The notes beneath the pieces were generated by a model that saw nothing but the letters and a program-made list of their open reading frames with translations, searched no databases and had not been told where the DNA came from. A DNA stretch of 64,000 nt from Callorhinchus milii (lineage: Eukaryota): assembly GCF_018977255.1 (NCBI RefSeq), contig NW_024704742.1, positions 93,808,001 through 93,872,000 on the forward strand, in the 5' to 3' direction. Position numbers and translations under genes: made by a program. Below, one piece after another: positions 56,072 to 56,661 of this stretch. Position 1 is the stretch's first letter. Each line of letters begins with the position of its first letter.

Positions 56072-56493
56072 GAGATCCCAGCAATACAAGCCTTCTCCCA
56101 GCCATCTGACGGCCCTGGAGGCGGGTTTTGGCTTTCCTTCCAACCCCCCCCCCCCCCCCCCCCACACCACCCCACCCCCCCCCCTCCCCTTTCCCAATGG
56201 AGAGAGAGAGAGAGAGTTTTTTTTCCCCCTATTGAATCAAAGCAACACAGAGTCGGAGGGCCCTGTTGCACACAGAATGGTTCAAGCGAGCGGTGCGGGT
56301 AAAGCTCACAGAGCCTCTGTGAGAAGGTGAAAGGCTCGCAAGTCTCTCTCCCTCTCTCTCTCTCTCTCCCTCTCGGTCTCCCTCGATCTCTCTCTTTCCC
56401 TCTCTCCCTCTCTCTCTCTCTCTCTCTTTAAAAAAAGCGACACAGTTCTCCTGTGAATGTAGGAAGATCGCCGGGATTTTCCCAGATCGCGAA

Positions 56494-56661
56494 ATGTGGG
56501 AATGGAAGGCGCAAACTTTGACTCGCCATCGCTACGAGGAGTATGAAGTTTGCCGCACCGCGTCTGCTGTGTTGAGGATTAAAGTGCCCGCCTGGTGGAA
56601 CCTCAGACGGTGTGTGATTACACTGCCACAGTCCCATCAACAACATGGCCTCGGCTGTTAA
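56494..56661 (+). other. Upstream ORF, 55 codons, out of frame and overlapping the PTCH1 start codon
   Basis: gaaATG at 56494; MWEWKAQTLTRHRYEEYEVCRTASAVLRIKVPAWWNLRRCVITLPQSHQQHGLGC, stop TAA 56659-56661. Confidence 0.7.
56502..56546 (+). other. Upstream ORF, 14 codons
   Basis: ggaATGG strong context; MEGANFDSPSLRGV, stop TGA 56544-56546. Confidence 0.7.

Follow-up and report, generated by a model that had tools for sequence, protein, structure and literature searches.

A conserved cluster of upstream AUGs in the PTCH1 exon-1b leader of Callorhinchus milii, most likely a translational brake on the Hedgehog receptor

We analysed a window of 64,000 nucleotides (nt) of Callorhinchus milii DNA (NCBI RefSeq assembly GCF_018977255.1, contig NW_024704742.1, positions 93,808,001 to 93,872,000 of the forward strand; all coordinates below are those of the window and refer to its plus strand unless stated). 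In it, the leader of PTCH1 exon 1b carries a start-proximal cluster of upstream AUGs (uAUGs) that appears to be orthologous to 'cluster 2' of mouse Ptch1 (the third to fifth mouse uAUGs) and most likely damps translation of the Hedgehog receptor. We put the probability of this reading at about 0.8. The anatomy of the cluster, its presence in spliced RNA and its conservation are established directly here; repression has been shown in mouse by others, and the division of ribosomes among the AUGs in this species is inferred. Because the cluster would be orthologous to the characterized mouse one, its mechanism would already be known.

The cluster holds four uAUGs. The first is a start-stop, ATG-TAG, at 56457–56462, with T at both −3 and +4. 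The second opens an overlapping open reading frame (oORF) of 55 codons (MWEWKAQ...HGLGC, 56494–56661), which is out of frame with PTCH1: its ATG stands 151 nt (1 mod 3) before the main ATG at 56645, and its TAA stop (56659–56661) ends 14 nt inside the PTCH1 coding sequence. The ATG at 56502, whose Kozak context (G at both −3 and +4) is the best of the four, starts a 14-codon upstream open reading frame (uORF), MEGANFDSPSLRGV (56502–56546, stop at 56544–56546). Overlapping that stop (ATGA), the fourth ATG opens a ten-codon uORF in the main frame, MKFAAPRLLC (56543–56575, stop at 56573–56575). An earlier, sequence-only reading of the window had described these four uAUGs, and each coordinate, frame, peptide and overlap that it gave was confirmed in the sequence; it had overlooked three more upstream ATGs in the probable leader. 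One of these, in a CCAATG motif (ATG at 56070–56072), comes before all other AUGs of the probable long leader and shares its frame with 56277. The other two open distal uORFs of 12 codons (MERERESFFSPY, 56197–56235) and 17 codons (MVQASGAG..., 56277–56330). Between the distal uORFs and the cluster lies a long (CT)n pyrimidine tract that is masked as a repeat (56338–56440).

Both protein matches and RNA identify the gene. The coding part of exon 1b (56645–56812, 56 codons) begins MASAVNV..., ends PSYCDAAFALEQISK and is followed by an AAG/gt donor. The last 20 residues of its peptide contain the PTCH1 exon-1b motif, and its best matches are 'protein patched homolog 1' of Pristiophorus, Scyliorhinus, Hemiscyllium and Stegostoma (79–89% identity); identity to bony-fish records is about 54%. 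A LisH match of the exon-1 peptide (E 0.097) was under the cut-off and was dismissed. The PTCH1 leader is single-copy in the 0.99-Gb assembly, in which the contig with the window is of chromosome scale. Contigs from three sequencing runs (X1, X5 and X11) diverge from the window at 56813 and continue with sequence that is unique in the window (58544, just after an AG), that is, into PTCH1 exon 2 (58543–58735). A further run, X9, yielded no sequence here. As exon 1 joins exon 2 in these contigs, the GT..AG intron 1 of 1.73 kb (56813–58542) has been removed and the contigs come from spliced mRNA. The X1 contig, whose run shares its species label with the best-matching runs, is without differences over 56441–56813, with 79 further upstream bases inside the masked (CT)n repeat, and because it spans this interval all four uAUGs of the cluster lie inside the transcript. 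The shark PTCH1 matches and the splicing into exon 2 bear out the earlier identification of this DNA as a PTCH1 exon-1b leader, and, as the uAUGs sit in the spliced transcript, transcription does not begin downstream of 56502.

The leader extends well beyond the cluster in at least one relative. The X5 contig additionally covers 56050–56129 and 56274–56294 (one mismatch in 56274–56294) and starts at least 17 nt upstream of 56050; the leader of this relative is about 600 nt or longer, and the long leader is transcribed there. The mouse Ptch1 5′ untranslated region (5′UTR) measures 841 nt by rapid amplification of cDNA 5′ ends (Fujii et al. 2017, Nat Commun, PMC5316868).

What exceeds chance in this leader is its conservation, not its bare anatomy. 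A 74-nt block (56481–56554) that contains the AUG pair at 56494 and 56502, the entire 14-codon uORF and the 56543 ATG is invariant in both relatives (0/74 differences in X5 and 0/74 in X11). The rest of the leader (56555–56644) differs at 19/90 positions in X5 and 12/90 in X11, and the coding part (56645–56813) at 10/169 and 7/169. Comparing the block with the 90 nt that follow it gives a Fisher P of 6e-6 for X5 and 6e-4 for X11. These counts cover 29 of the 30 differences of X5 and 19 of the 20 of X11; the remaining one most likely falls in the ALEQ codon of the window, 13 nt before the end of the aligned piece, because all shark proteins have ALDQ there, and the contrast survives when it is placed in the invariant block instead (P 6e-5 and 7e-3, respectively). 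Neither alignment to 56481–56813 contains an indel. The oORF is open and in frame 1 mod 3 in all three sequences (window, X5 and X11), and the 14-codon uORF is identical among them. In X5 and X11 the 56543 uORF begins and stops at the same places as in the window but has an altered peptide, and ATGTAG is present in the loose end of the X11 contig, at a spacing 2 bases shorter.

Translating exon 1 from X5 and X11 gives peptides that agree with PTCH1 records of catshark and sawshark at 55/56 residues each. Because these peptides match shark PTCH1, and exon 2 of a second Patched gene in the genome of the window (described below) matches Callorhinchus milii Patched 2, the three-sequence comparison seems to span chimaera-like and shark-like lineages. 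Chimaeras and sharks split about 400 million years ago. Overall, the leaders compared were those of the window, X5, X11, mouse and the PTCH2-type paralogue. In metagenomes, a scan for other vertebrate leaders with a degenerate pattern built on conserved exon-1 codons gave 0 matches, and a uAUG-block pattern gave 8, all without similarity past 20–29 nt, which were treated as chance; the two longest, read directly, resemble unrelated coding DNA.

Comparison with the mouse extends the cluster beyond cartilaginous fishes. All five mouse uAUGs have positional counterparts in the window (56197, 56277, 56457, 56494 and 56502), judged by eye like every sequence comparison with the mouse given here. 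Mouse uAUG 1 (motif ccaaATGgagagag) corresponds to 56197, where the match to the mouse 5′UTR consists of ccaATGgagagag, a T run and ctattga.tcaa, and mouse uAUG 2 (motif cagaATGgtcca) corresponds to 56277, with the match cagaATGgt.ca.gcg. Mouse uAUG 3 (ATGTGG, 43 nt before the fourth) takes the place of 56457 (ATGTAG, 37 nt before 56494), and mouse uAUGs 4 and 5 (motif ATGtggcaATGgaaggcgca) that of 56494 and 56502, the two AUGs being 8 nt apart in both species. The −3/+4 contexts are equal as well: weak for the third uAUG, G/T for the fourth and G/G for the fifth. In the same first exon of the same gene, the mouse fourth uAUG opens a frame of 66 codons that overlaps the coding sequence, lies 184 nt (1 mod 3) from the main AUG and stops at the same TAA, within MASAGN. 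The uORF of the fifth ends GT.TGA in both species (GTG-TGA in mouse). Two segments differ in length between mouse and window, by 24 and 9 nt, each divisible by three.

The two leaders also differ in several respects. The third uAUG is a start-stop in the window and in frame with the fifth uORF in mouse; the short uORF has 14 codons in the window and 22 in mouse, and the oORF 55 and 66. The window has an extra, AUGA-coupled ten-codon uORF at 56543, where the mouse reads GTGTGA, and the CCAATG at 56070 reads CCAATC in mouse. The leader has about 50% G+C in the window, whereas that of the mouse looks GC-rich, with a CGG repeat preceding its AUG.

Function has been assigned to the mouse cluster by mutagenesis. 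Mutating the third to fifth uAUGs raised reporter translation about sixfold, and the third and/or fifth uAUG proved capable of initiation, while deletion of the distal cluster had no effect in reporters (Fujii et al. 2017, PMC5316868). In neural progenitors derived from embryonic stem cells, deletion of the cluster with CRISPR (clustered regularly interspaced short palindromic repeats) raised PTCH1 protein and weakened Sonic hedgehog (Shh) responses (PMC5316868). This mutagenesis supports the translational-control role that the sequence-only reading had proposed. The same reading had singled out deep conservation of the overlap as the part worth testing; its novelty is weakened, since Fujii et al. 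had already called the Ptch1 uAUGs 'overall highly conserved' and present vertebrate sequences aligned by UCSC in Suppl. Fig. 9 (PMC5316868).

Some points weigh against reading the cluster as a brake of the kind described. In NIH3T3 reporters the mouse fourth uAUG, labelled an oORF, contributed little to repression (PMC5316868), which argues against the emphasis that had been placed on the 55-codon frame. The mouse comparison by eye used text extracted from a PDF (Suppl. Table 1, PMC5316868), without an alignment tool, and the X1, X5 and X11 runs carry a guessed label of RNA, their RNA origin being deduced from the exon 1–exon 2 junction. Compared with 5000 dinucleotide shuffles, neither the number of AUGs nor the open frame stands out by itself: 56441–56644 has 4 ATGs where shuffles have 4.68 ± 1.45 (79% have at least 4), and the 56494 frame is open over 148 nt in 396/5000 shuffles (7.9%). 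Finally, invariance at all three codon positions would also fit an element at the DNA or RNA level that is unrelated to the AUGs.

Such an element could be promoter-proximal, enhancer-like or RNA-binding, with the AUGs incidental to it. Besides the invariance of every codon position, its proponents could point to the location of the block, which follows a promoter block with a GLI site, itself deeply conserved, at a distance of about 500 nt, and to the nearby pyrimidine tracts, which have been linked to control dependent on eukaryotic initiation factor 3c (eIF3c). We give this explanation little chance: it is specifically the ATGs, their spacing and their Kozak contexts that mouse, this fish and the paralogue retain, while the intervening sequence drifts, and point mutations of the ATGs alone de-repress translation in mouse (PMC5316868). 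RNA folding of the leader over three spans showed no structure signal against shuffles (z 0.02, 0.51 and 1.13), no compensatory base pairs were found among the window, X5 and X11, and an Rfam search of the leader region returned no family at gathering score; neither folding energy nor compensatory changes mark the leader as a structured RNA or as similar to an internal ribosome entry site. A hairpin at 56509–56556, which starts 14 nt after the 56494 uAUG and was considered as an initiation enhancer, was dropped (z −0.68).

A different possibility is that an upstream frame is kept for its product, either the 55-residue overlapping peptide or the 14-residue MEGA... peptide, as a functional micropeptide. 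Consistent with this, the 14-codon uORF is identical across the three cartilaginous-fish sequences, there are no indels between the 56494 uAUG and the main AUG, and substitutions between X5 and the window in 56555–56644 are synonymous in the oORF frame at 10/19, compared with 3/19 and 5/19 in the other frames. Permuting the substitutions with their types preserved yields 5.3 on average (P 0.014), and pooling the distinct X5 and X11 events gives 11/20 synonymous (P 0.007). However, these P values are uncorrected for three frames and come from about 20 events, several in shared codons, among three related sequences, and we regard the weak synonymous excess as a hint, not a finding. Open frames in the relatives are uninformative about stop avoidance, as just 4.1% of possible substitutions make a stop in the oORF frame.

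The peptides themselves argue the other way. Resemblance of the oORF peptide to that of mouse is limited to about ten N-terminal residues, which fall in the tandem AUG block, and the five C-terminal residues, which fall in the coding overlap; the middle is unrelated. In the paralogue the overlapping peptide is an unrelated poly-Leu/PAL repeat. The oORF peptide has no homologue among 5.8 billion proteins and no Pfam match, and mouse uORF 5, with its 22 codons, has just MEGA..SP and the final V in common with the 14-codon uORF. Across mouse, paralogue and homologue search, no peptide conservation was seen beyond that due to overlap with other features. The micropeptide that the sequence-only reading had offered as one interpretation is therefore improbable.

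Taking the cluster as a translational brake, we propose the following course of events. Scanning 40S subunits would travel along a leader of about 600 nt, and part of them would pause at the start-stop at 56457, whose context is weak, or terminate there. Another part would initiate at 56494, pass the main AUG and end 14 nt inside the coding sequence, which would be a dead end for PTCH1. The majority of initiating ribosomes would take the strong-context AUG at 56502, make the 14-residue peptide and stop 98 nt upstream of the main AUG; with the stop at this distance, only a fraction might be able to reinitiate. In cartilaginous fishes, the AUGA overlap at 56543 would form a second short trap.

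A brake of this design could in principle be adjustable. In ATF4 and GCN4, delayed reinitiation is coupled to an inhibitory uORF that overlaps the coding sequence. A switch of that type at PTCH1 would have the short uORFs and the start-stop release reinitiating 40S subunits, with initiation-factor or ternary-complex levels choosing among the dead-end oORF, the permissive 14-codon uORF and PTCH1, so that output would be regulated and not just damped. The anatomy, taken by itself, agrees with delayed reinitiation: the short uORFs (56197 and 56277) and the 56457 start-stop, a mere 32 nt before the remaining cluster, precede an out-of-frame ORF of about 55 codons across the main start (56494–56661), and two AUGs 8 nt apart differ in frame and in Kozak strength. 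The overlapping status is retained in mouse and in the paralogue, where it arises by chance in 602/5000 shuffles, and the translation efficiency of Ptch1 differs between neural tube and forelimb (Fujii et al., Suppl. Data 7; PMC5316868).

We nevertheless consider a switch unlikely. Mutated alone, the mouse fourth uAUG had little effect, and the deletion of the distal cluster that left mouse reporters unchanged argues against an essential priming uORF (PMC5316868). Unlike ATF4 and GCN4, the window has a strong-context short uORF 8 nt after the oORF AUG, and the overlapping AUG of mouse Ptch1 is of small effect. We know of no dependence of the Patched leader on phosphorylation of eIF2-alpha. The overlap may have been selected either for a switch function or for a peptide.

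The cluster recurs at a second gene. Searched with exon 2, the same genome yielded a single further Patched gene (contig C5, 73% identity). Exon 2 of this gene shows 98% identity to Callorhinchus milii Patched 2, and amphibian 'patched homolog 2' is the other of its best named matches. The region upstream of this PTCH2-type paralogue is collinear with the PTCH1 promoter and leader. The two share, in order, an 89-nt GLI block; CCAATG, at the place matching 56070; ATCTGA.GG.CTGGAGGCGGGTT; ccccaATG, in the aligned column of 56197; the (CT)n tract with the core CTCTCGGTCTC; ATGTAG; and, 36 nt later, cgcgaaATGttgggATGgaa. The AUG pair of the paralogue is likewise 8 nt apart and has the same contexts as in PTCH1. 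Local alignment of the uAUG block between the two genes reaches a score of 30, whereas the highest score among 2000 shuffles is 25, and the 20-nt block pattern CGCGAAATGTNGGNATGGAA has exactly two occurrences in the genome (0.99 Gb), one per Patched gene (reversed control, 0). Of the AUG pair in the paralogue, the first starts a frame of 100 codons that passes through the sole candidate main ATG at a distance of 128 nt (2 mod 3), and the second starts one of 11 codons. Aligning the putative leader of the paralogue with that of PTCH1 gave no counterparts of 56277 and 56543. The claim that frame and overlap have been kept across jawed vertebrates thus holds in part: tandem AUGs, overlap and the 1 mod 3 distance are common to three cartilaginous fishes and the mouse, and the frame departs from 1 mod 3 in the PTCH2-type paralogue.

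The shared GLI block lies at 55967–56053 of the window, in what is probably the promoter and transcription-start region (the X5 start is upstream of 56050). It contains an exact consensus GLI site, GACCACCCA, on the minus strand (55985–55993), and matches the paralogue upstream region over 89 nt (85% identity, E 4e-22), with a GLI site at the matching place in the paralogue (locus L012, minus strand). As a conserved non-coding element surrounding the GLI site, the block is of great age. We considered gene conversion between the two genes unlikely: what they share forms islands of 85–90% identity within sequence that does not otherwise align, and their exon-1 peptides have just 48% identity over 21 residues. 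The presence of cassette and GLI promoter block at both genes points to an origin before PTCH1 and PTCH2 diverged.

A wider proposal is more tentative, and we hold it with less than even confidence. Start-stop, overlapping ORF and strong-context uORF 8 nt further on, together with the GLI block, might form an ancestral Patched module that predates the PTCH1/PTCH2 duplication and has been kept for about half a billion years. Selection would then keep the oORF open and in its frame and might, in cartilaginous fishes, act on its peptide as well, and the AUG pair would be a start-site choice switch that sets the dosage of both Hedgehog receptors.

Mouse Ptch2 is among the Shh components under translational control, in passages that do not dissect its leader (Fujii et al., PMC5316868). 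Within the limited literature collection searched for oORF overlap or PTCH2 uORFs, Fujii et al. 2017 was the sole directly relevant paper and none on PTCH2 uAUGs was found; the one supplementary file of Chew et al. 2016 consulted has no ptch entry. Relative to the literature covered, three additions may be new: the 74-nt invariance, the start-stop nature of the counterpart of the third mouse uAUG, and the cassette with its GLI block at the PTCH2-type paralogue. The weak synonymous excess in the oORF frame may be a further novelty.

As to the paralogue itself, its exon 1 (L012, minus strand) is swollen by tandem repeats, with a GCCAGCCCT unit (PAS repeats) and CPDTAH-type repeats, and a (GTT)n run ahead of the start codon encodes poly-Leu in the overlapping frame. 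In shark and ray orthologues exon 1 is normal, MASVS...PSYCHAAFALKQISK.

The leader can also be set beside other known systems. For human PTCH1b, Ozretic et al. (2015, RNA Biol) reportedly found that uAUGs/uORFs and a CGG repeat modulate translation. The repressive effect of the CGG repeat is borne out by a review; unlike human PTCH1b, the window has no CGG repeat before the main AUG. According to Wieder et al. 2024 (PMC11057154), start-stop elements are considered to pause ribosomes while yielding no peptide, are found in 5.0% of human 5′UTRs and are enriched in dosage-sensitive genes. As in those elements, the AUG at 56457 directly precedes a stop, here in a weak context. The start-stop ATGTAG is kept in three of the four sequences readable at this place (window, X11 and paralogue), the fourth being the ATGTGG of mouse. 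According to a review, a pyrimidine-rich motif confers eIF3c-dependent translation on Ptch1. Long poly-C/pyrimidine and (CT)n tracts occupy 56131–56232 and 56338–56440 of the leader in the window, and a pyrimidine-rich stretch is found at the equivalent place before uAUG 1 in mouse.

Elsewhere in the window, exact GLI consensus sites (GACCACCCA) number three within 7 kb upstream of exon 1b: at 49428–49436 (plus), at 52576–52584 (plus) and the proximal one at 55985–55993 (minus), to which the comparison with the paralogue was confined. Three sites compare with 0.42 expected and were reached in 1/100 shuffles, an excess that fits PTCH1 as a direct GLI target. Putative tRNA-Ala(TGC) genes were predicted at 767–836 (minus), 40134–40205 (plus) and 41253–41324 (minus), and intron 1 is rich in (GT)n and poly-G microsatellites (56860–56990, 57040–57065, 57225–57260 and 58480–58540).

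The dosage of PTCH1, a tumour suppressor, sets the sensitivity of the Hedgehog pathway, and in mouse both the level of PTCH1 protein and neural patterning depend on the uAUG cluster (PMC5316868). The invariance of the cluster in cartilaginous fishes and its repetition in the paralogue argue that this translational damping is ancient and selected, and not a mammalian peculiarity. The shared cassette also provides a specific hypothesis for how translation of Ptch2 may be controlled.

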